Below are positions 45,769-57,321 of a stretch of 64,000 nt of DNA, piece after piece (position 1 is the stretch's first letter; each line of letters starts with the position of its first letter). The notes beneath the pieces are model-generated. The model did not search any database, had not been told where the DNA came from, and saw only the letters and a program-made list of their open reading frames with translations. A program made the position numbers and the translations under genes. Source of the DNA: an uncultured Pseudomonadota bacterium (GTDB lineage: Bacteria; Pseudomonadota; Alphaproteobacteria; JACZXZ01); NCBI GenBank assembly GCA_963749075.1, contig CAVVLJ010000020.1:640001-704000 (forward strand), in the 5' to 3' direction.

Positions 45769-46381
45769 TCAGCCTGCGAGATCGTCGGTCTTCTTGCGGA
45801 TCGCCGAGATGAGGGCGTCGACCCCCTTGTCGCGGATGACGGAGGTGTATTCCGAGCGCCGCGTGGCGAGCTGGGAGATCGAGCCGTCGAGAAAGACGTT
45901 CGATCACCTGGTAATTGCTGTCGCCGTCGGCGCGCAGAAGATAGTCGATGGGAACCTTGTCGCCGTCGGACTTGACGATCGCGGTATAGACGATGATGTC
46001 CTTGCGCGGCGTCTCCTTGATGCCGCTGGTGACGAACTTCTCGCCCTCGTAGCCGGGGAAGTTGTGCGCGTAGTTCGCGACGGTGAAGTTGCGGAAGGCG
46101 TCGACCAGCGCCGTGCGCTGAGCGGCCGTCATCGAGTCCCAGTAGGAGCCGACGCTCGTCTGCGCCATCAGCGCCACGTTGAAGGTCTTCTCCACCCACG
46201 GCTTGAGGAGCTCGTAGCGGCCCTTGTAGCCGAGCCTGGCGCCGTTCTGCATGGCGTTCATGAGCTGCGCGTAATAGCTCTCGATCACCTGCTTCGGTGC
46301 ATCGGGGGCGGCCGCGGCCGCGGCGGAGAGCGTGGCGGCCACGGCGAGGGCGGCCAGGAGAGCTTTCAGGCGCTGCAGCAT
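45769..46381 (-). CDS. hpnM: MlaC/Ttg2D-family lipid shuttle, hopanoid-associated HpnM, 1-bp frameshift at about 45899
   Basis: FN..LM....G..W, F..FTVANYA.NF..Y.GE.F, IDYLL; removing one base restores QVIDVFLDGSISQLATRRSEYTSVI..KG.DALI with the stop at 45769; divergent from hpnN. Confidence 0.82.
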
Positions 46382-46661
46382 CGGAATCCCAAGGTTGTTC
46401 GCAAGACGACGCCGCATCGTGCGGATGCCGCTCATTCCTCAAATTAAGGACTCGATGGCGCGGCGGCAATAGGGTCTCCTGCGCGGCGCGCTGCGTCAAG
46501 CCCGCTCAACCTGCGGCGGCAAGCGGCTTCCGCCGATTCGGCGCGTGCCGCATCCGGGCACCGACGTTCGCCATTTGTCCGCACGGCCGCGCGGCGCGGA
46601 ACTCGGCGCCGCGCGCGCCCGCGGCGCGTTCCGCAGCGCCTCGGCGGCGGCGCCCCGCGGC

Positions 46662-46702
46662 AATATTGGGCTTGTGGATCGCGGCGCGCGCCGTTATATC
46701 CA
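46662..46702 (+). repeat. Conserved upstream (promoter) block of hpnN copy 1
   Basis: AATATTGGGCTTGTGGATCGCGGCGCGCGCCGTTATATCCA; 36/41 identical to 54497-54537. Confidence 0.75.
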
Positions 46703-46770
46703 GTGGCTCGCGGGCAGGGCACGCTTGGCGTTCGCGCCGCATTCGGCCGCTCGGGTCCGATTCCTCCAAC

Positions 46771-49484
46771 ATGCGAGTCGCAACACCAGTGCACGCCGAA
46801 GTCCCGGAGCAGCGTCCCAGGCGAATGGCGATATTGCCCGGGCGGTGGTACCGCCTGAGGACGGCCATGGTCGCCATGGCGCTCTGCTGGTGGGTGGAGC
46901 GCGTGCGGCGTCTGGCCTGGCCGGTCGTCATCGGCTCCGTTTTGCTTGCGCTTGCGGGCGGCGTCTACACCGCCAGCCATCTCCGCATGAACACCGACAT
47001 CGACGCCCTGTTGTCCCCCGATCTGCCCTACCGCAAGATATTCAAGGCCTTCGAGGAGGATTTCCCGCAGATGCGCGGGAATCTCGTGGTCGTCGTCGAG
47101 AGCGACGGCGCCGAGCGCGCGGAGAGCGCGGCCAAGGCGCTCGCCGCCAAGTTCGCGGCCGACCACGCGCTCTTCGAGGACGTCTTCTATCCGATGGGCG
47201 ACCCCTTCTTCCACCGCGAGGGTCTGCTTTACCTCAAGTCCGACGAGCTGCAGCAGTTCGCCGACCGCATCGTCCAGGCCAAGCCGCTGCTCGTCACCTT
47301 CGCCTTGGACCGCAGCCTGCGCGGCTTCTTCGGCGCGCTCGGCGACGTGGCCGAGGGCGTCAAGCTCGGCAAGCTCGATCCGGCGCTGCTCGCGCACCCG
47401 CTCGGCGCGATCGCCCAGACGGTGGAGGGGCAGATCGACGGCAAGTCGGATCCCTTGAGCTGGCGCGATCTCGTGGCCGCGTCGCCCGGCAAAGCCTCGG
47501 ATCGGCGCCAGATCATTCAGCTCAAGCTCCACATCGACCCGCAGTCCTTGTCGCCGGCCGTGACCGCGATCAAGGCCGTGCGCGCCACAGCGGCGGAGCT
47601 GGGCCTCGATCCGGCGCACGGCGTGCGCGTGCGCATCACCGGCTCGCCGGCGCTCGACGAGGACGATCTCAAGACCGTGAGGGACGGCGTCGGGCTGGCG
47701 AGCGCGGTCTCGCTCGTGCTCGTCTCGATCATCGTGTTCCTCGGCCTGCGCTCGCCCCGGCTCGTCTTCGCGACCCTCGCAACGCTCGTGCTGAGCCTGG
47801 TGTGGACCGCCGCCTACGCGACGCTCGCGGTCGGCTACCTCAACATGATCTCGGTCGCCTTCGCCGTGCTCTTCATCGGCCTCGCGGTCGATTTCAGCAT
47901 CCAGTTCGGGCTGCGCTACAAGGAGAGCGTCGACCGCGGCTCGCCGACCCAGGCGGCGCTCAGGGAGGCGGCGGGCGGCACCGGCGTCGCCGTGACGCTT
48001 GCCGCGGTGTGCGCCGCGATCGGCTTCTTCGCTTTCGTGCCGACCGACTACATCGGCCTCTCGCAGCTCGGCATCATCGCGGGCGGCGGCATGTTCATCG
48101 GGCTCTTCGCCACCCTCACGCTGCTGCCGGCGATCCTCACGCTCCTGCCGGTGAAGCCGAGCCGGCGCGCGGTCGAGAACAGGAAGGGCTATGCCGCGGC
48201 GAGGCTGCTCGAGCGCCATGCCCGCGCGGCGTGCCTGGGGGCGCTCGCCGTGGGCCTCGTGGCGCTCACATCCTTCCCGTGGGTGCGCTTCGATATCGAT
48301 CCCATCAACCTCAAGAGCCCCGACAGCGAGTCCGTCCAGGTCTTTCGCGACATGACCAAGGATTCGCGCACCTCGCCCTACTCGATCAGCATCGTGACGC
48401 CCAATCTGGGGGCGGCCGATGCGCTGGCCAAGCGGCTCGACAAGCTGCCCGAGGTCGCCGGAACCGTAACCCTCAGCTCCTTCCTGCCCTCGGACGAGGA
48501 GGCCAAGCTGCCCGTCATCCGGCGCATGGCGGCTTCCGTGCTGCCCATCCTGCAGGCACCCGAGCGCCGCAGTCCGCCGAGCGGCGAGCGCCGCCGCGAC
48601 GCGACGGAGGAGGCGGGCACCATGCTCACCGGCTTGGCGAACCTGCCCAACGCCGGCGCCGCCGCGGCACCGGCGCGGCACTTGGCCGAGGTTCTCGCCC
48701 GCTTCAACGAGGGCCCGGGCAGAATCTCGATAGCTATGGCGGCCTCGAGAAGGCGCTCGTCGCGAGCCTGTCGGGCGAGCTCGACGGCATGGCCGGCCTG
48801 CTGCAGCCGGCGGCCGTGACGGCGGCGGAGCTGCCGGCCAACATCCGGGCGCGCTACGTGGCGGACTCCGGCCGCGCGCGCATCCAGGTGTTCCCCGCGG
48901 AGACGCTCAACAACGAGCGCGCGCTCAGCCGCTTCGTCACGGCGGTGCGCGCCGTGGCGCCCGATGCCACCGATTCGCCGGTCGAGCTCTACGAGGGCGG
49001 CCGGATGGTGGTCGGCGCCTTCGTCGAGGCGGGCGTGATCGCGCTCGTCGCCATCAGCCTGGTCCTCGTCCTCGTGCTGCGCAGCCTGCTCGATTCGCTC
49101 CTCGTGCTGCTGCCCTTGACGCTGGCCGCGGTGCTCACGGTGGCGGTCGTCGTGGTGACGGGGCATTCCTTCAATTTCGCGAATATCATAGCGCTTCCGC
49201 TGCTCTTCAGCTTAGGCGTCGCCTTCGGCATCTATTTCGTGATGCGCCACCGCGAGACCCCGGGACTGGTGGACCTCATGCACACCAGCACGCCCAGGGC
49301 CATTCTGTTCTCGGCGCTGACCACGATGGTGGCGTTCTCGAGCCTCATGCTGTCGAGCCACCGCGGCACGGCGAGCATGGGCTTTCTCCTCGGCGTCTGC
49401 TTGACCCTCGCACTCGTCTGCACGCTCACCGTTCTTCCAGCACTCCTCACCTGGCGCGCGCAGCGCCGCGGGGCGCGGCGCTAG
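46771..49484 (+). CDS. hpnN: Hopanoid RND/MMPL exporter HpnN, copy 1, 1-bp deletion at about 48722
   Basis: FFHREGLLYL, LNMISVAFAVLFIGLAVDFSIQF, DPINLK.P.SESV, FNFANIIALPLL; translation continues in the frame of track ORF 46545-49484 after about 48722. Confidence 0.88.
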
Positions 49485-49672
49485 CTTGGATTTCCACGGA
49501 ACACGGTTTGCCTAACGGCTCGCTTCATTCAATAAAATTGCCAGAGGCATTTTGTGCTGTGTGTGAACCTACGTTGGGCGACCATCGAAGACCGCCCCGG
49601 TCCGGTCTGCCAGCTCAAATCTCGAATGGAATGTCACCGTACCGCCGGCCGCGATCGGCGGTTTCGGCGCGG

Positions 49673-50608
49673 TTACCGGCTATTAGCAATGAGAGCTGGG
49701 AGTCGTCTGACGGCGACGCCGAAGGTTAGCAGATCGTAGCTGTTGCAGAAGCTCTCGAAGCGGAACTCCCAGACCTCACCATTCGCGTCCTGGAGCGGGT
49801 GGCTCGCATCGCCAGTCGGGCCCTTTGAGCGGAAGTCAACGTAGGAACGTACTATGCGGTAGATATCTGCTCCTAACAGATGCGGGAAAGCTCGTCGGAA
49901 TCCACGCGATCGGATGAAGTGTCGGCAGTTCCCTCCATCCGATGCTCCACCGATATGCGGATGGCGCGGATGACGGCTAATAAGCCCCACGACCGGGTGA
50001 TCTGGCTCGCGCTCCTCGATCATATGCCAGAGCGTGGTCGTGATTGTGTTGCCATAGCGCTTCTTGAGCTCATGAATTGCAGTCCAACTTAGCTCGCCAT
50101 CACGCGCCTCATTCGCGAATTTGTCCAAGAGGAACAGGAGCTGACCAGCGCCGTAATTCGCTTCGGCCTCGATGACCATGTGACATGCTGGGTCGAGTGT
50201 TAGCTCGTTGTCGCCCCGCAGGAAATCGCGGTGCCATGGCGTGATGTCATGCGTGATCTCATGGGCCTCGATATGCCGTTGCTTGGGTGTCGGCACATCA
50301 TCATCGATCAAAATCCGCCGGTCCTCTTTGAACAGGAGCGCCCGAAGCCCGGCCTTCTGTATCACCTCGATCATTCGGGTTGGTTTTCGAATCAGGCGTT
50401 TCCCACCGACCCTTAGTCGATGGGACACCTCGTCAAACAGTGATAGATCGGTCTTGCTGTAGTAGCCGAGATCCAGCTTCAGAAGCTCGCGAACTTCTCC
50501 GAGGAGCAATGGCGGTTCTGGCTGGCCGAGATCGCGCAAGATGCGTGCAATTTGCCGCCGAATGTCCTCAGCTGAATATTCGTCGATTTCCGGATCCTCA
50601 ATCGGCAT
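49673..50608 (-). CDS. ImmA/IrrE-family zinc metallopeptidase (CapP-like)
   Basis: AHEITH (HExxH), IEAEANYGAGQLL third-ligand helix, HTH-like linker and extra C-terminal domain. Confidence 0.88.
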   Translation of the reverse strand: MPIEDPEIDEYSAEDIRRQIARILRDLGQPEPPLLLGEVRELLKLDLGYYSKTDLSLFDEVSHRLRVGGKRLIRKPTRMIEVIQKAGLRALLFKEDRRILIDDDVPTPKQRHIEAHEITHDITPWHRDFLRGDNELTLDPACHMVIEAEANYGAGQLLFLLDKFANEARDGELSWTAIHELKKRYGNTITTTLWHMIEEREPDHPVVGLISRHPRHPHIGGASDGGNCRHFIRSRGFRRAFPHLLGADIYRIVRSYVDFRSKGPTGDASHPLQDANGEVWEFRFESFCNSYDLLTFGVAVRRLPALIANSR

Positions 50609-51143
50609 TCTTCTTCCAATGCTCCTTGTATTCGCTAAGCAACTTGATGAATTCGTTCAGGCGTTTCCGCTCATCTCGGCTTAGCTTCGATAAGTCGTCC
50701 GAGCTGGCAGCAAACCGGACCGCCGCCTTCTCAAGATTTTGGTCACGCTCGGCAGCTGCTGGTGAGAGAACGAGAAGTGCCCGTGGCGGCAATTTGAAAT
50801 GAACGGCGAGCTGGTAAATCGTCCGCGGTCTCGGGACGATACTGCCGTCTTGCTCGAGCGCGCGTAGTTCTCCTTCGGGTACGCGGACGACCGCAGCAAG
50901 TTGCGCGATATTCAGATTGTCTCGCCGACGCAACTGCCGAAGCAAAATGCCGAGCAGCACTGCCGGCTGCGCGCTGCTAGCTGGCGCTTTCGCTCTAGGG
51001 CTAGGCGGGGTGCGCGGGGTCTTTTCGGAAACAAAGGCCTGTAGGACTTCAGCCTTTGTGATAGGTAGACCGGCGTCGGTATCCAGGTCGGCGTCACGCT
51101 CGATCCGGCTCCGCAGCCATTTGTTTGTGATTCTCATGATCAT
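50598..51143 (-). CDS. XRE-family HTH regulator (CapH/DdrO-like)
   Basis: LG.LLRQLRRR.NL.IAQLAA..V...EL..LE..P.PRTIYQLA..F HTH; C-terminal VRFAASS..L..LS.DE tail; overlaps the peptidase start; GAGGAA RBS before 51143. Confidence 0.85.
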   Translation of the reverse strand: MIMRITNKWLRSRIERDADLDTDAGLPITKAEVLQAFVSEKTPRTPPSPRAKAPASSAQPAVLLGILLRQLRRRDNLNIAQLAAVVRVPEGELRALEQDGSIVPRPRTIYQLAVHFKLPPRALLVLSPAAAERDQNLEKAAVRFAASSDDLSKLSRDERKRLNEFIKLLSEYKEHWKKNAD

Positions 51144-51153
51144 GTCGTGTTCC

Positions 51154-51787
51154 TCAGCTTTCCGGCGTTTCCAGAAAGGTCGCGGCCTGGTTTGACGAAA
51201 GCTCGAAGTAGCATAATCCATAGCATTGCTGGTCGGAGCCGAAGTCGGTCAACTCCATAACGTCGCGGTAGAATCCCTCCGCGTTCGGCAGGGCATGGAG
51301 ACCGATGCGGCCCTCCAAGCCCTCGTCGAGGCTGAGGTTTACGGCCGCGGCGAAGAGTAGCTGACCTACGCCCTTGTATTTCGGATCGGTAACGAACCGT
51401 GGTCGATTCCAAGGCGCCGTTGCCAGCCGGTCTATGTAGACGCAGGTCCGCGCGCGGGTGGTCAGAGTGACGACTGAATTTTCCACCTTTGCGGACCAGC
51501 ATGAGCCCTTGCGTAAGATCAGCGCACTCGACGCTGTACATCTGAAACAGGAGCGGATTCCGGTAGATTTCGGCCAACCGCCGCCAATCCCAGTGCGCAT
51601 CTTCAGCATTCGCTGCCACGCGCTCAACGGCCGAGGCATTGGCTGGCAATCTGGCTGCGAAAGCGGGTTGCCAGTCACGCTCAAAATCGAGGAGATTCTT
51701 TGCGTCGATCCCATCGAAGAGCATGGCCTCCTCGTACCGCCGGGTTTGACGGTTTAGCAGGTCAAAGGCGCCAAGCCGCGTCTTCAT
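51154..51787 (-). CDS. GNAT-family acetyltransferase (candidate toxin), 1-bp frameshift at about 51442
   Basis: Joining track ORFs 51140-51787 and 51154-51714 gives ..HWDW..TQGLM..LVYIDRLATAPWNR..KYKGVG..GRIGLHALPNAEGFY (acetyl-CoA motif A and B). Confidence 0.8.
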
Positions 51788-51996
51788 AGGACCATCAGCT
51801 CAGCTTTTTCTTTGCTCTTGGGGTCCTCGATGAAAACCTTGTCGCCACGCTCTAAACGCTCGTCAACCGACTGATAGAGACGCAACGCCTGACGCAGCAA
51901 CACGGTCTTCGATAGACCCTTGCGAATGCAGAGGGCCTCCAGTGCGTTCATCTCGGCATCGCTCAGATTGAGCGTCATGGTCCGCTTTTCGGTCAC
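51784..51996 (-). CDS. Ribbon-helix-helix (CopG-like) protein, candidate antitoxin/repressor
   Basis: KRTMTLNLSD.E...LE.L....GLSKT.LLRQALRLY; GGAGGAG RBS before GTG 51996; 4-bp overlap with the GNAT start. Confidence 0.85.
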   Translation of the reverse strand: MTEKRTMTLNLSDAEMNALEALCIRKGLSKTVLLRQALRLYQSVDERLERGDKVFIEDPKSKEKAELMVL

Positions 51997-52020
51997 GGGG
52001 CTTCTCCTCCAGGCCAACGA

Positions 52021-52095
52021 TATATAGGCGTCGGCATGGATTTTGTCAACATAATTTAGCCGTTGACTAGCTAAAAAATAGCTGTATTTTAGCTA
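52021..52095. promoter_or_regulatory. Divergent promoter pair with an 11-bp-phased TAGC operator array
   Basis: TTGACA on minus (52044-52049) and TTGACT on plus (52063-52068); TAGC at 52057, 52068, 52079, 52090; inverted TAGCTAAAA/TTTTAGCTA at 52068-52095. Confidence 0.7.
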
Positions 52096-52161
52096 TCTAG
52101 CAGTGACCTGCGCCGCTCGGACCATCCGTGCCGGCCGCACACCCTACAGAGGAACAGGCAA

Positions 52162-52947
52162 ATGGAACCGCAGAATCAACCAAACCCAGAGCAAGTTGAT
52201 ACGGACGTACAGAAAGCGGCGGCGGACGTGAAGCAGGCCGTAGCGGAACTCGAGCGAGCCGAGCACGATCTGGAGCGGGCGGAATCCGAACTCCAGGAAG
52301 CCGAGGCGCATCATCACGCAATTCACTTCACCGTCGACGGCGAACCTTGCGAGACGGAGAAACGCGAGATGACGCCGAACGAGATCATTCGAGAGTTCGG
52401 CAACGGTCAAGACGCAACAACCCACTATCTCATTCAGCTCAAAGGGCACGAGAAGATCAGTTACCAGGGCAAAGGCAACGAGCCGGTCAAGCTGCACGAC
52501 GGCATGCAGTTCCAGATCGTCTCGCTAGGGCCGACGCCGGTCTCGGACGGCCCGATTGTGCGGGGGGTTCCGGCCTTCGTCGAGGGCTTGCGCGGACTCG
52601 GCTACGCGTCCGTCGCACTGCCGGGCAAGCCGGACCATGTTGTGATCGACTACTCGGTGCCGGTCGGCCGTTTCGCCGGCCAGCAGATGCGCCTGGGATT
52701 CATCGTGCCGCCCGACTTCCCCGAGATCCCCCCGAGCGGCCCACACGTCTCGCCGCACATCCACCCGATCAAGACCGATGGTGGCCACCCGAACGGTGCG
52801 GTGCACCGATCGCACTCAGAGCCCTTTGAGCGCGGGCTAGGGGGCCTTTGGCAGTATTGGTCGCGCCCTTTGAAGGACTGGGTGAAGGGCAAGAAGACCG
52901 TCGCCGCCTACATGAGCCACATCTGGCGCTTGTGGGCCACGCAATGA
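52162..52947 (+). CDS. Coiled-coil + ubiquitin-like (multi-ubiquitin type) + prokaryotic E2-like fusion protein
   Basis: Heptad-rich N-terminus; IHFTVDGE..E.TPNEII..Y.L....V.L.DGM.F..GPTPVS beta-grasp pattern; then Y.VP.G.F.G, VPPDFP..PPSGPH, WQYWSRP E2-like motifs. Confidence 0.75.
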   Translation: MEPQNQPNPEQVDTDVQKAAADVKQAVAELERAEHDLERAESELQEAEAHHHAIHFTVDGEPCETEKREMTPNEIIREFGNGQDATTHYLIQLKGHEKISYQGKGNEPVKLHDGMQFQIVSLGPTPVSDGPIVRGVPAFVEGLRGLGYASVALPGKPDHVVIDYSVPVGRFAGQQMRLGFIVPPDFPEIPPSGPHVSPHIHPIKTDGGHPNGAVHRSHSEPFERGLGGLWQYWSRPLKDWVKGKKTVAAYMSHIWRLWATQ

Positions 52948-54366
52948 GCCGCGCAGCCCACTCGGCGGCGATGACAGAGAAGGTGGACCGCGCAGCCCGT
53001 GGCCAACTCTTGCGCATCGACCGCCAGGAAGATTTGTGCTTCGCGCTGTGGCACCCGAGCCGCGGTCGTAGCCGGACGACCGCGCTCATTGAGCGCCTCA
53101 TCCTGCCTGAAGAGGGGGACCGCCGGATTCACGGCAACGCGAGCTTCGAGCCGGCATTTTTCGAGCGCGCGCTCGGCACCGCCACGGCCCAAGGCGCCGG
53201 CTTGGCGCTTCTACACAGCCATCCGTACGGGCGCGGTTGGCAGGGCATGAGCAAGGACAACGTCGTCGCTGAGCAGGGCCATGCCGGGGCTACCTACGGC
53301 GCGACCGGCTCGCCTCTGGTAGGCTTGACGCTCGCTGGCGATGGCACGTGGAGCGCGCGGTTCTGGGATCGCACTGCACCGCGGACATATCCTGGTGCTT
53401 GGTGTGCCACGGTGCGGGTAATCGGCCAACGCCTCGTCACGATGTATAACCCCGCGCTCGCTCCGCCACCGCGACCGACCGACGAGCAGATCCGGACTAC
53501 CTCGGCCTGGGGCGAAAGCAGCCAAGAGGATCTGGTGCGCCTGCGCGTCGGTGTCGTCGGCGCCGGCAGCGTTGGTGGCATTGTTGCCGAGACTTCTCGC
53601 GCGAACCGGCTTCGAGGATGTGATGCTCATCGATTTCGATCATGTCGAGCGCCATAACCTCGACCGCCTGGTCTATGCGACGCGCGCCGACATCGGCGAG
53701 CTCAAGGTGGAGGTGTTGGCGGAGCATCTGCGCACTCGCGCGACCGCCGCGGCTTTCCGAGTCGAGCCAGTAACCGCCGCCGTGTACGAGGAGGAAGGCT
53801 TCCGGGCGGCTCTTGACTGTAACGTCCTCTTTTCCTGCGTCGACCGTCCGTGGGGCCGGTATGTGTTGAACCTCATCGCCTACGCCCACTTGATCCCGGT
53901 GATCGACGGTGGCATCGCCATCCGAACCAACCGGCTGGGCAAGCTGGCTGCGGCCGATTGGCGCGCGCACACCGCCATGGTTGAACGGTGCTGTCTGCAG
54001 TGCCTCGGTCAATACGACCCCAGCTTAGTACAGATGGAGCGCGAGGGACATCTCGACGATCCGCATTACATCGCCAGTTTGCCGAAAGACCTCCCGCTCA
54101 AGGCCCGCGAGAACGTCTTCGCCTTTGCCTTGTCCACCGGTAGCTTCCAGATGCTGCAACTGCTCGCCCTCGCGCTGGCGCCGCTTGATCAGTCGAACCC
54201 AGGCGCCCAGCGCTATCATTTTGTGGGCCATTTTATGGAGCCACCGGCTTTCAGTGCCTGCCGTCCGGGATGCTTGTTTCCCTCGCTCGCCGGGCACGGC
54301 GATTCGAGCGGATTGGCGGTCACGGGTGCACGGCCGATCAGGCCAAAGAATGACGCCAGCCCGTGA
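52944..54366 (+). CDS. JAB/MPN-like peptidase + ThiF/E1 activating enzyme fusion, 1-bp frameshift at about 53592
   Basis: N-terminal QED..HSHP..S JAB pattern; VGVVGAGSVG, IDFDHVE.HNLDR, K, FSCVD..R, P.IDGG, C..C; removing the A at 53592 joins track ORFs 52848-53657 and 53551-54366; ATGA overlap with the upstream gene. Confidence 0.85.
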
Positions 54367-54367
54367 T

Positions 54368-54443
54368 GTGAGCGATCCAAGGGTCTACGTCGGCTACGTA
54401 TTCCTCTACTCCTACGGCCTTGAGCGCAGAGTGTTGCTGGACG
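54368..54443 (+). pseudogene. Short remnant of a TerB_N-domain protein (Shango SngA-like)
   Basis: Translates VSDPRVYVGYVFLYSYGLERRVLLD, matching the GYVFL.FYGLERR signature as I recall it for TerB_N; no full gene present. Confidence 0.6.
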
Positions 54444-54496
54444 GCGCCGGTGACGCGCAAAATGCGCCAGGCACCCTCCGCCGGCCGCGGCTGGCT

Positions 54497-54537
54497 AATA
54501 TTGGGCTTGTCGATCACGGCGCCCGCCCTTATATGCA
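54497..54537 (+). repeat. Conserved upstream (promoter) block of hpnN copy 2
   Basis: AATATTGGGCTTGTCGATCACGGCGCCCGCCCTTATATGCA; 36/41 identical to 46662-46702. Confidence 0.75.
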
Positions 54538-54609
54538 CGCCTTGATGGCCGGACGGCGCCGAGGGGATGGTGCGTTGCTTTTGGCCGCAACCGGCTGTTC
54601 TCGCTGTCG

Positions 54610-57321
54610 ATGAGCCCTATACCCGTGCAGGCCGAGGTCCCGGAGGAACATCCGAGCGGCAGTGAGGCCGTGCCCGAGCACCGCCGCCGCCCGTTCGGAC
54701 CGCGCATCGCCTGGGCCCTCGGCTGGTGGGTCGAGCGGGTGCGGCGCTTTGCTTGGCCCGTGGTCGTCGCAGCGCTCTTGGCCACGCTCGCGGGCGGCGT
54801 CTACACCGTGCGGAATCTCCGCATGAATTCCGACAGCGACGCGCTCCTGTCCTCGGCGTTGCCCTATCGCCAGACGCTCAAGGCCTTCAGGACGGCATTT
54901 CCAGAGCTCCGGGGCAATCTCGTCGTCATCGTCGACGGCGACAGTCCCGACCGCGCCGAGGACGCGGCGAACGCGCTCGCCGCCAGGCTCGGCGCCGCGA
55001 GCGCGCTCTTCGAGGACGTCTATTTCCCTACCGGCGAGCCGTTCTTCCGCCGCGAGGGCCTGCTGTTCCTCGATAAGAAGGAGCTCCAGGATCTCTCGGA
55101 CCGCCTGGCGCAGGCCCAGCCGCTCCTCGGCGCGCTCGTCGAGGACCGCAGCCTGCGCGGCCTCTTCGGCGTGCTCCGCGAGGCCACGCTCGGCATCGAG
55201 CACGGCGAGGTCGCCCCCACCCTCCTGGTGCGCCCGCTCGAGGCGATCGGGGACACGGTCCAGGCCGGGCTCGAGGGCAGGCCGGCGCGCTTGAGCTGGC
55301 GCGACCTCATGACGGGTCTCCCCGACCGGCCGGCCGACCGGCGCCAGTTCATCCTCGTCAAGCCGCGGCTCGACCACGGCTCGCTCGCCCCCGCCGAGCG
55401 CGCGATCAAGGCCGTGCACGCCCTCGCGGCGGCGCTCGATCTCGATGCGCGGCACGGCGTGCGCGTGCGCGTGACGGGCGGCCCGGCGCTCGACGAGGAC
55501 GATTTGCGCAGCGCGCGGAACGGCGTCGGGCTCGCCAGCATGATCTCGCTCGTGCTCGTCTCCATCATCGTCTGCATCGGCCTGCGCTCGCCCAAGCTGA
55601 TCTTCGCGACGCTCGCGACGCTGATCCTGAGCCTGATATGGACCGCGGCCTTCGCCACGCTAGCCATCGGCTATCTCAACATGATCTCGATCGCCTTCGC
55701 CGTGCTCTTCATCGGCCTCGCGGTCGATTTCAGCATCCAGTTCGGGCTGCGCTACAAGGAGAGCGTGGATCACGGCGCCGGTCTCGCGGCAGCACTCGAG
55801 CGCGCGGCGCGGGGCACCGGCGTCGCGGTCGGCCTGGCCGCACTCTGCGCCGCGGTCGGCTTCTTCGCCTTCGTGCCGACCGACTATACGGGCCTCTCCC
55901 AGCTCGGCATCATCGCCGGCGGCGGCATGTTCATCGGGCTCTTCGCGACGCTGACGCTGCTGCCGGCGCTGCTGGCGCTCATGCCCATCAAGCCGAGCGC
56001 CCGGCCGATCGAGGAGAGGAACCGGCTCGTCGTGGCGGCGTTTCTCGACCGCCACGCGCGGGCGGTGTGCCTCGCGGCACTTGCCATCGGCCTCGTCTCG
56101 CTCGCGGCCGTTCCCTTCGCGCGCTTCGACTTCGATCCCATCAATCTCAAGAACCCGAACACCGAGTCGGTGCAGGCCTATTTGGAATTGACCAAGGACG
56201 CCGGCACCTCGCCCTATTCGCTCAACGTCGTGGCGCCGAACCTCGCGGATGCCGATGCGCTGGCCAAACGGCTCGACCGGCTGCCCGAGGTGGACAGCAC
56301 GGTGACGCTGAGCTCCTTCATTCCGCAGGGCGCCGCGGCAAAGCTGGGGCTCATCGATCAGATGGCGACCTTCCTGACGCCCGTGCTGCAGGAGCCCGAG
56401 CCGAAGCCGCCGCCGAGCGACGCCGAGCGGCGCGCCGCCTCGGAGGCGCTGCGCCAGGCCCTCGTCGAGCTCGCCGTCTCGCCCAAGGCGGGCGCCGTCG
56501 CCGCCTCCGCAAGGCGCCTGGCCGAGCTGCTCGCGCGCTTCAACGACGGCCCCGGCAGGGATCTCGCCGCCTATAGCCGGCTCGAGACCGCCCTCGTCGG
56601 CAACCTGCCGGGCCGTCTCGACAGCCTCATCGACCTCATGCAGGCGGGACCCGTCACCTACGGCACGCTGCCGTACAATCTGCGGGAGCGCTACGTCACC
56701 CCCGACGGCCGCGCGCGCGTCGAGATCTTCCCGGCTCAGAATCTCACCAACGAGGTCGCCTTGCGCCGCTTCGTCGAGTCCGTGCGCACCGTGGCGCCCG
56801 ATGCCACCGGGGCACCCGTCGAGCTCCTCGAAGGCGGCAAGCTCGTCATCGGCGCCTTCGAGCAGGCGGGCGCCATAGCGCTCGTCGCCATCAGCCTGCT
56901 CCTCGTCCTCGTGCTGCGCAGCGTTTGGGACTCCCTCCTCGTGCTCTTGCCGCTGGCGCTCGCGGCGGCGCTCACGGTGGCCCTCGTCGTGGTGACCGGG
57001 CAGGCCTTCAATTTCGCCAATATCATCGCACTGCCGCTCCTCTTCAGCCTCGGCGTCGCCTTCGGCATCTACTTCGTGCTGCGCCACCGCGAGACCCGCG
57101 GGGTCGCCCAGCTCATGCGCACCAGCACGCCGCGCGCGGTGCTCTTCTCGGCGCTCACCACCATGGTCTCGTTCTCGAGCCTCATGGTGTCGAGCCACCG
57201 CGGGATGGCGAGCATGGGCTATCTCCTCGGCATCTGCCTGTCGCTGGCGCTGATCTGCACCCTCGTCGTGCTGCCCGCACTCCTCACCTGGCGCGAGCAG
57301 CATCGCGGGGAGACGCCATGA
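54610..57321 (+). CDS. hpnN: Hopanoid RND/MMPL exporter HpnN, copy 2 (intact)
   Basis: 903 aa; same motifs as copy 1; overlaps the hpnA start. Confidence 0.92.
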   Translation: MSPIPVQAEVPEEHPSGSEAVPEHRRRPFGPRIAWALGWWVERVRRFAWPVVVAALLATLAGGVYTVRNLRMNSDSDALLSSALPYRQTLKAFRTAFPELRGNLVVIVDGDSPDRAEDAANALAARLGAASALFEDVYFPTGEPFFRREGLLFLDKKELQDLSDRLAQAQPLLGALVEDRSLRGLFGVLREATLGIEHGEVAPTLLVRPLEAIGDTVQAGLEGRPARLSWRDLMTGLPDRPADRRQFILVKPRLDHGSLAPAERAIKAVHALAAALDLDARHGVRVRVTGGPALDEDDLRSARNGVGLASMISLVLVSIIVCIGLRSPKLIFATLATLILSLIWTAAFATLAIGYLNMISIAFAVLFIGLAVDFSIQFGLRYKESVDHGAGLAAALERAARGTGVAVGLAALCAAVGFFAFVPTDYTGLSQLGIIAGGGMFIGLFATLTLLPALLALMPIKPSARPIEERNRLVVAAFLDRHARAVCLAALAIGLVSLAAVPFARFDFDPINLKNPNTESVQAYLELTKDAGTSPYSLNVVAPNLADADALAKRLDRLPEVDSTVTLSSFIPQGAAAKLGLIDQMATFLTPVLQEPEPKPPPSDAERRAASEALRQALVELAVSPKAGAVAASARRLAELLARFNDGPGRDLAAYSRLETALVGNLPGRLDSLIDLMQAGPVTYGTLPYNLRERYVTPDGRARVEIFPAQNLTNEVALRRFVESVRTVAPDATGAPVELLEGGKLVIGAFEQAGAIALVAISLLLVLVLRSVWDSLLVLLPLALAAALTVALVVVTGQAFNFANIIALPLLFSLGVAFGIYFVLRHRETRGVAQLMRTSTPRAVLFSALTTMVSFSSLMVSSHRGMASMGYLLGICLSLALICTLVVLPALLTWREQHRGETP

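Follow-up and report, generated by a model that had tools for sequence, protein, structure and literature searches.

What is encoded by a compact group of six genes that interrupts a hopanoid gene cluster in an uncultured bacterium, and do the two halves of this group belong together? The genes are found at 49.5-54.5 kb of a 64,000-nucleotide stretch of DNA from an uncultured member of the Pseudomonadota (Alphaproteobacteria; JACZXZ01; GenBank assembly GCA_963749075.1, contig CAVVLJ010000020.1, positions 640,001 to 704,000 of the forward strand), the whole of which is called the window here. In the open reading frame (ORF) list of the window they form two divergent and tightly packed operons. 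The right arm encodes a predicted ubiquitin-like protein (Ubl) fused to an E2-type domain, followed by a JAB peptidase fused to an E1-type domain. The left arm encodes a ribbon-helix-helix (RHH) protein, a GCN5-related N-acetyltransferase (GNAT)-fold protein, a helix-turn-helix (HTH) protein and an ImmA/IrrE-type peptidase. An earlier description made from the letters of the window (the original prediction) had taken this group as a Bub-like conjugation system for anti-phage defence, placed under a protease switch and tied to a toxin-antitoxin pair; the six genes and their two coupled operons were all present as it had described them.

By sequence comparison and predicted structure, the right arm is a pair resembling Type I Bub, with a BubAB-like and a BubCD-like protein, from a branch in which BubE is missing. 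The left arm, judged from conserved gene order, is a four-gene cassette. The explanation that we favour, with somewhat better than even confidence, is that a horizontally acquired island joins two modules around a common control region of 144 bp, namely a BubE-less, Bub-like conjugation pair and a four-gene control cassette. Bub systems are the least understood bacterial relatives of ubiquitination. A widespread branch without BubE, with a tag predicted to end in Ser and an altered E2 site, can be used to probe how far the chemistry of E1 and E2 can drift. Moreover, a cassette with a putative acetyltransferase beside four kinds of Ubl operon gives a handle on how such systems are switched on, and possibly on a connection between bacterial ubiquitin-like tagging and acetylation.

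A Bub-like pair of conjugation proteins

Type I Bub (formerly 6E.1) is represented by BubAB, BubCD and BubE of Citrobacter sp. RHBSTW-00271 (PDB 9ea4, 9eae and 9eav), as described by Ye, Gong, Chambers and Corbett (bioRxiv 10.1101/2024.11.21.623953; Ye et al. below, in each case for the main text). In that system BubCD cuts BubAB after a conserved Gly, and the pathway runs over a Tyr on the E1 and then a Ser on the E2 (Ye et al.). The right arm of the window has the same layout, with a Ubl-E2 fusion followed by a JAB-E1 fusion in overlapping genes.

The BubCD-like gene (52944..54366, plus strand) is read in two frames in the window, with an extra base at 53594; it is a single ORF of 468-615 amino acids in 43 of 45 related loci, the split ones being L024 and L026. 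A profile of this family (alignment A3) matched Citrobacter BubCD (9ea4) with E=4.3e-38 over positions 16-450 against 10-435, which takes in both domains, and Citrobacter BubCD was also the best solved match of the JAB-E1 protein from an intact relative (3e-19). Motifs such as QEDLCF, HSHP, MSxD, GxGSVG, NLDR and two CxxC pairs were found, and the E, the HxH and the S..D of the JAB domain are all present. In the E1 crossover loop, conserved Cys is confined to the CxxC zinc pair, and two tyrosines are nearly invariant (Y389 and Y407, numbered as in L004). The E1 of the window branch differs from Citrobacter BubCD in its zinc site, which consists of four Cys that are other residues in Citrobacter. 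Some BubCD proteins of the branch (L003, L010, L020, L025 and L027 in A3) carry a variable basic and hydrophobic C-terminal tail with a conserved Trp; the window protein has no such tail.

The BubAB-like gene (52162..52947, plus strand) encodes 261 amino acids, with a coiled coil at 9-49, a Ubl beta-grasp at 54-121 and a Cys-less E2 part at 131-261. Its AlphaFold model (predicted local distance difference test score, pLDDT, of 81) shows a long helix over 9-49 and the beta-grasp over 54-121, after which a floppy tail leads to a UBC-like domain at 136-260. Relatives with E<=0.001 fall into 288 clusters at 90% identity; they are about 220-310 amino acids long and mostly unnamed. The model was compared with about 48,000 solved chains by VIA-align. 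The best matches of the beta-grasp were bacterial multi-ubiquitin (BubA) proteins, with Z of 10.3, 9.9 and 8.7 and root-mean-square deviations of 1.5-1.9, and the E2 part matched Citrobacter BubB best (Z 9.4, deviation 3.2, 112 residues aligned), eukaryotic E2s following at Z 9.1 and below. A profile of the E2 part found BubB at 1.1e-7, one of the 12 rows of this profile being a BubE-linked E2. With the full-length BubAB profile no relative among solved structures reached E<=1, Foldseek with the whole model gave no match at E<=0.001, and Pfam Prok-E2_E scored 21.8 bits, under its cut-off of 25. The Bub-like nature that the original prediction gave to the right arm is borne out by the BubCD profile together with the BubA and BubB folds.

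The alignment of E2 sequences suggests which residue acts in catalysis. The WSR of the clade motif YWSRP aligns with the WSRH of BubB, so that Ser234 (codon 52861-52863) corresponds to the catalytic Ser333 of BubB. All 121 sequences keep Ser234, Ser128, Tyr232 and Arg235, and Cys reaches a share of 30% in none of the E2 columns. Thus the window E2, like that of Type I Bub, has a Ser where other E2s have a Cys. Ser197, in the motif HVSP, was considered as the nucleophile and ruled out, as it is Ala in L011 and L017 and the BubB alignment points to Ser234.

The end of the tag can be read from gene structure. Among 38 loci with a Ubl match, the Ubl is fused to the E2 in 24 and split from it in 14. 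In 11 of the 14 split loci the stop codon of the Ubl gene directly follows VS, and 2-4 additional residues are found in the other 3; the separate Ubl genes of L043 and L044 also stop directly after VS. Because the separate genes of relatives end exactly there, the cut by the JAB domain is predicted to fall after Ser128 (codon 52543-52545). Ser128 is invariant in the 121 sequences, whereas Gly130 is present in 67. In this way the split and fused forms mark the processing site without experiment. The predicted end at Ser, not Gly, separates the Ubl of the window branch from that of Type I Bub. The window Ubl also differs in having one beta-grasp domain behind a coiled coil, a form that Ye et al. 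saw in three Bub Ubls.

Two other systems with related proteins fit less well. Bil operons provide the same functions (Ubl, E2, JAB and E1), and some of them are under CapH/CapP; however, Bil proteins are separate, whereas those of the window are fused. Bil E1s contain a domain with a catalytic cysteine (Ye et al.). The window E1 matched BilD weakly (3.8e-4), and among PADLOC models the Ubl-E2 protein matched none for Bil. In Type II CBASS, the cyclase-based anti-phage system with Cap2 and Cap3, a cyclase and effector would be expected to accompany the conjugation proteins; unlike it, the window has no PADLOC match to a cyclase or CBASS effector among nine ORFs, as the original prediction had stated, and its E1 gives partial matches to E1-E2 models, the best being 1.3e-8 over about 100 residues.

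Several points weigh against the assignment to Type I Bub. Profile alignment places Citrobacter Tyr370 opposite the His/Leu of PKDHPL and opposite neither of the two conserved tyrosines. The E2 helper residues of BubB are not conserved either: His335 corresponds to Pro236 in 117 of 121 clade sequences, and Asp299 to position 192, where Ser occurs in 74 of them, Gly in 27 and Thr in 14. The E2 active site in the branch is thus, as the alignment indicates, an altered one, in which the catalytic Ser of Bub is kept and the His and Asp helpers are not. A Ser C-terminus is unusual for the substrate of an E1. A further difference is the lack of BubE (DUF6527), which all Bub operons carry according to Ye et al. 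No BubE was found among 78 downstream ORFs of 45 loci. In a six-frame search of 46 loci and the window, a home-made DUF6527 hidden Markov model gave no match, and it recovered three of three controls, two of them overlapping its seeds. DUF6527 was likewise not found in the host genome of the window, which is 96% complete; among five other host genomes of the branch, it was absent in two and located elsewhere in three. The published Bub catalogue was drawn from operons with DUF6527, and therefore a branch without BubE could not be in it. Concerning the proposed role in defence, no Bub operon was found to protect E. coli from phage (Ye et al.). The molecular activities of all island genes, moreover, are predictions from sequence, model and analogy.

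Other arrangements were observed among related loci. The Bub operon at L079:33-4308 (genome G062) encodes a separate Ubl (140 amino acids) and E2 (127 amino acids, WFSWH motif), a JAB-E1 protein (444 amino acids), a 492-amino-acid protein without family, and DUF6527. A fusion of a caspase (Peptidase_C14) with a DEAD helicase, about 1030 amino acids, is directly downstream of BubCD at L008:12202-15297, L014:12231-15326, L016:12210-13835 and L041:12190-15231. At L004:5397-8498 such a fusion adjoins the capP gene. It may be a recurrent partner or effector of the BubE-less branch.

A four-gene cassette beside operons for Ubl conjugation

The left arm starts with the RHH gene (51784..52017, minus strand), whose product of 77 amino acids matches Pfam RHH_1 with E=1e-5 (25.7 bits, cut-off 20.5) and ends in a KEKAELMVL tail that is conserved in alignment A8. 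It is followed by the GNAT-fold gene (51154..51787, minus strand; about 210 amino acids), which is read in two frames in the window, with an extra base at 51442. The relatives of the latter form 24 clusters of 206-217 amino acids, and alignment A2 shows no gap where the two pieces of the window protein meet. At E<=0.001, 182 solved GNAT structures match the AlphaFold model of relative P0123 (pLDDT 73), and the top 13 include the toxins TacT, AtaT and GmvT, with E about 1e-5. The small RHH gene overlaps the start of the GNAT-fold gene by 4 nucleotides, as in the pairs TacA/TacT, AtaR/AtaT and GmvA/GmvT, whose toxins the predicted fold matches, and the conserved tail of the RHH protein is another likeness to GNAT-RHH pairs. 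By Pfam the window RHH is of the RHH_1 (CopG) type. Unlike in the toxin pairs, the pair here continues into an HTH and a peptidase gene.

These two further genes resemble the CapH/CapP regulators. The HTH gene (50598..51221, minus strand; true start probably the ATG at 51143, just past the GNAT stop) encodes an XRE-type, CapH-like putative repressor that matches HTH_31 with 33.4 bits (cut-off 27), PADLOC capH with 5e-6 and HTH_VI with 2.4e-6. The peptidase gene (49673..50608, minus strand) encodes a CapP-like ImmA/IrrE zinc peptidase of 311 amino acids with the HExxH motif HEITH and a PADLOC capP match of 4.6e-10. The window peptidase has no Pfam match at E<=0.01; its cassette orthologues in L066 and L086 pass Peptidase_M78 with 26.6 and 28.2 bits (cut-off 22). 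The identification of this pair as CapH/CapP-like, put forward in the original prediction, is supported by the PADLOC matches.

Stimulation of CapH cleavage by CapP through single-stranded DNA is known for an E. coli pair, and CapH/CapP are known beside 6e (Bub) and DUF2188 operons, according to the main text of Lau et al. (bioRxiv 10.1101/2022.04.27.489752). CapH together with CapP was found in 168 of 544 Bub operons, or 31% (Ye et al.). In the BubE-less branch such a pair is the norm, with a capP-like gene, usually accompanied by an HTH gene, upstream in 36 of the 42 loci that have upstream sequence. As in CapH/CapP, DdrO/IrrE and ImmR/ImmA, the XRE-type HTH gene and the M78 peptidase gene of the window adjoin each other and diverge from a defence-type operon. 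Unlike CapH/CapP, they are downstream of RHH and GNAT in one four-gene operon, and therefore the HTH gene is not adjacent to the promoter. The window HTH also has an N-terminal extension of about 60 residues that CapH lacks.

The four genes were found together in other organisms. In 13 metagenome loci with a GNAT relative, an RHH gene is directly upstream in 10, an HTH gene directly downstream in 10, and a peptidase gene next in 7; among these 7, the peptidase of L061 matches at its two ends only. L065 ends after GNAT, and L070 and L071 are distant or partial. Among 400 genomes sampled from the host's class, GNAT was found in three others, with HTH and peptidase in all three and RHH in two; the contig of the third starts at GNAT. 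The four genes keep their order and overlaps across loci that are 35-85% identical. By this conservation RHH-GNAT-HTH-peptidase is a four-gene cassette. The window HTH is 56-65% identical to the HTH genes of the cassette loci L060, L061, L063 and L067.

The complete set of six genes did not recur. The original prediction had proposed a search for genomes in which all six occur together; RHH or GNAT was found in 0 of 46 loci of the BubAB branch, and therefore the six-gene set of the window is one particular joining of two mobile modules. Identity of the window HTH and peptidase to their counterparts at other BubAB-clade loci is only 23-43%; the two come from a different lineage, and for this reason the island is regarded as a chimera. 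The tie between RHH-GNAT and the system survives in a different form: the two genes belong to a conserved cassette with the HTH and peptidase, and this cassette recurs beside Ubl operons.

The gene that diverges from the cassette could be judged at nine loci, the remaining loci being too short. At six of the nine (the window, L087, L086, L063, L066 and L062) it belongs to an operon for Ubl conjugation. L087 has Multi_ubiq with Prok-E2_E (3.5e-45) and then Prok-JAB with ThiF, which is Type I Bub, and L086 has Multi_ubiq, then DUF6791 with ThiF, then DUF6527, which is Type II Bub. In L063 there are BilA (6.7e-37), BilB (4.2e-51) and the start of a JAB gene; L066 has a small Ubl candidate followed by BilB-, BilC- and BilD-like genes; and L062 shows the start of a BilA gene. 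The neighbour in L059 is a DUF2188 gene, and no recognisable divergent neighbour was found in L060 (a plasmid-like contig) or L069. In L066:4-2726 a TIR-APAZ gene and a short prokaryotic Argonaute gene (PADLOC pAgo_I, 8e-160) adjoin the Bil-like operon and the cassette, which is the context of a defence island.

No acetyltransferase, GNAT or toxin is mentioned in the main texts of the Bub and CapH/CapP papers, and a full-text literature search found no paper that joins GNAT with CapH, CapP or ubiquitin-like systems in this context. In the literature, neither the four-gene cassette nor its association with Ubl operons was found described, though supplementary tables may list such neighbours. 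The original prediction had called the whole arrangement uncharacterised. As to its parts, Type I Bub and the CapH/CapP link are already published in the main texts cited above, and the left-arm cassette and its recurrence beside Ubl operons are new here.

The two operons share a divergent promoter and operator region of 144 bp (52018..52161, no strand assigned), which contains the inverted repeat I12 and a promoter-like site. Two TAGCTA boxes are located at 52068-52073 and 52090-52095 with a CAGCTA between them on the opposite strand, and together they form a palindrome at 52068-52095. In the window the boxes are 22 bp apart with the degenerate box between them; boxes of the form T[AG]GC[TC]A at 11-bp spacing were found upstream of the RHH gene in seven of nine other cassette loci examined. 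TAGCTA occurs three times in the 64-kb window against 1.7 expected, two of the three being in the control region. The count alone is not significant; unlike the count, the clustering of the boxes and their conservation across loci are significant in the sequences compared. A promoter-like site, TTGACT-16-TATTTT at 52063-52090 on the plus strand, overlies the boxes and is the only such site on the plus strand. The promoter scan gave one site where 1.3 are expected by chance, so that this site is credible only because of its position over the boxes. On the minus strand, TTGACA-17-TATATA was read by eye and was not flagged by the scan.

A proposed mechanism and its alternatives

From the biochemistry of the Citrobacter proteins, the JAB domain of BubCD would cut the BubAB pre-protein and release a free coiled-coil-Ubl. 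The E1 domain would then adenylate the Ubl at its Ser128 C-terminus, and the Ubl would pass through oxygen-esters, first on a tyrosine of the crossover loop and then on Ser234 of the E2, to lysines of targets. RHH dimers may bind the TAGCYA boxes, spaced at 11 bp, over the Bub promoter and keep both operons off. By analogy with CapH/CapP, a cue from DNA damage or infection (single-stranded DNA) would cause the peptidase to cut a repressor, and both operons would be turned on. The least certain step concerns the GNAT-fold protein: RHH may restrain it as in TacAT or AtaRT, and it may be a growth-arresting acetyltransferase or may act on the conjugation pathway.

Some observations count against parts of this scheme. 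RHH and HTH are both candidate binders of the boxes; the repeated operator boxes look RHH-like, in which they differ from CapH/CapP. The GNAT assignment meets Pfam Acetyltransf_10 with E of 0.003-0.05, below the cut-off, and the protein has an extra N-terminal region of about 75 residues; in this region, in its length and in failing to reach a Pfam GNAT cut-off it differs from the toxins of GNAT-RHH pairs. The GNAT-fold protein also has no PADLOC match. A complex prediction for RHH and GNAT of L059 (alignments A8 and A5) scored 0.12 against a mark of 0.32 and counts neither way. Finally, the association of the cassette with its cargo rests on few loci.

A further step can be taken only tentatively. 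The cassette might be a dedicated partner of bacterial Ubl conjugation and not a generic switch. GNAT might then act on the pathway, for example through acetylation of the Ubl, the E2 or host proteins at lysines or N-termini, so as to gate or restrict conjugation or to protect host proteins, or it might serve as the growth-arrest arm. RHH, and not HTH, would repress the cargo promoter.

Against any such partnership, the modules may be independent of each other. RHH-GNAT would then be an ordinary type II addiction pair that stabilises mobile DNA, HTH-peptidase a generic regulator of the CapH/CapP type, and the nearness to Ubl genes would reflect the cargo preference of CapH/CapP, leaving GNAT without a role in the pathway. 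In passages of Makarova et al. 2009 (PMC2701414), GNAT-RHH, GNAT-Xre and COG2856-Xre pairs are listed and three-component systems are proposed, so that GNAT-RHH and COG2856-Xre are long-known mobile two-gene modules. The share of Bub operons with CapH/CapP in the main text of Ye et al. fits the same idea, as does the cassette of L059, whose neighbour DUF2188 is another known CapH/CapP cargo in the main text of Lau et al.; in addition, 36 of 42 clade loci manage with HTH-peptidase alone. Against independence, the four genes keep their order and overlaps over the range of identity given above, and the operator boxes travel with the cassette and cover the cargo promoter in the window. Moreover, six of seven identifiable cargos are Ubl operons of four kinds, and except for DUF2188 none is CBASS, DISARM or another cargo of CapH/CapP. 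We regard the independence of the modules as unlikely.

Improbable, too, is a three-component toxin-antitoxin or Rosmer-like system, in which GNAT would be the toxin, a split HTH and M78 peptidase (like RmrA) the antitoxin or sensor, RHH only an autoregulator, and the Ubl operon a passenger. The RmrA models of PADLOC do match the peptidases and HTH proteins of the family weakly, L018 has a fused RmrA-like HTH-peptidase (1.4e-52) at the equivalent position, and the three-component idea itself is found in the passages of Makarova et al. 2009. The window peptidase, however, matches capP (4.6e-10) far better than RmrA (0.0014). The lack of a PADLOC toxin match for GNAT also stands against this explanation, and the overlapping RHH-GNAT order is the classical layout of antitoxin and toxin.

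Insertion, frame breaks and surroundings of the island

The six genes form an inserted island (49485..54490, no strand assigned, right end approximate) between the two tandem hpnN paralogues. The GC content of the island is 0.53-0.67 against 0.68-0.76 in the flanks, as expected for the compositionally distinct stretch of the original prediction. In four genomes of the same genus (G001, G002, G004 and G005) the tandem hpnN paralogues are about 185-370 bp apart. The window keeps the final 110 bp or so of this native spacer before hpnN2, the remainder being replaced by the 5.1-kb island. Because the spacer between hpnN1 and hpnN2 is short in the same-genus genomes and its last part is kept here, the 5.1 kb is an insertion, and the six-gene stretch is foreign, lower-GC DNA between tandem hpnN genes. 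Within it, gene junctions overlap as ATGA at 51784-51787 and 52944-52947 and by 11 nucleotides at 50598-50608. The hopanoid setting named in the original prediction was found as well, with HpnN at 1027.8 bits (cut-off 751.85) and HpnA at 495.6 bits (cut-off 367.65); a flanking HpnM-like gene scored below the HpnM cut-off.

No terminal direct or inverted repeats, target duplication, integrase or tRNA were found at the island ends in the ORF list and a repeat scan of the window. The BubAB-like gene was found in 0 of 60 host relatives, the single match, in G009, being limited to the coiled-coil segment. A pattern scan found no relatives of BubAB or GNAT in IMG/VR viral contigs, and tblastn gave no match for BubAB in PLSDB plasmids. 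NCBIfam had no name for any island protein. Downstream of the island genes lies a TerB_N remnant (about 54362..54460, plus strand), which covers 33 of 207 profile positions (PF13208, E=2.7e-7, 31 bits, cut-off 25) and was correctly noticed in the original prediction; in 45 related loci no TerB_N was found in the two ORFs that follow BubCD.

The two frame breaks were compared with a second assembly, from a soil metagenome run (X1) that holds 84% of the sampled words of the locus. Over 46200-54700 (8.5 kb), the only indels reported for the X1 contigs are two losses of a single base, at 51442 and at 53594, which coincide exactly with the frame breaks in the GNAT and JAB-E1 genes. Taking out either base gives a frame that aligns without gaps to full-length relatives. 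Each frameshift is therefore probably spurious, a single extra base introduced in assembly, and the repair of the locus that the original prediction had thought necessary would not be needed. X1 depth is low at the two sites (4.4 and 3). X1 may be the source sample of the window, and therefore it is a second assembly and not a second organism. That the island is a decaying, non-functional remnant is very improbable: two genes each read in two frames in the window, the truncated TerB_N fragment, the missing BubE and the lack of any mobility gene (such as an integrase) or terminal repeat would agree with decay, but the X1 contigs have neither frame break, no catalytic motif is damaged, and the lack of BubE is shared by all 46 loci of the clade and is not peculiar to this one.

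Two minor observations concern the flanking gene hpnN1 (46297-49484). It is read in two frames, as ORFs 46297-48819 and 46545-49484, with a switch near 48.7 kb. No indel is listed there in the X1 contigs, whose cover of this spot is unclear, and the switch may be genuine or may be a third error of assembly. Within the same gene, at window positions 47652-47859, a second X1 contig shows about 25 substitutions in 200 bp and probably represents a paralogue or a related strain present in that sample.

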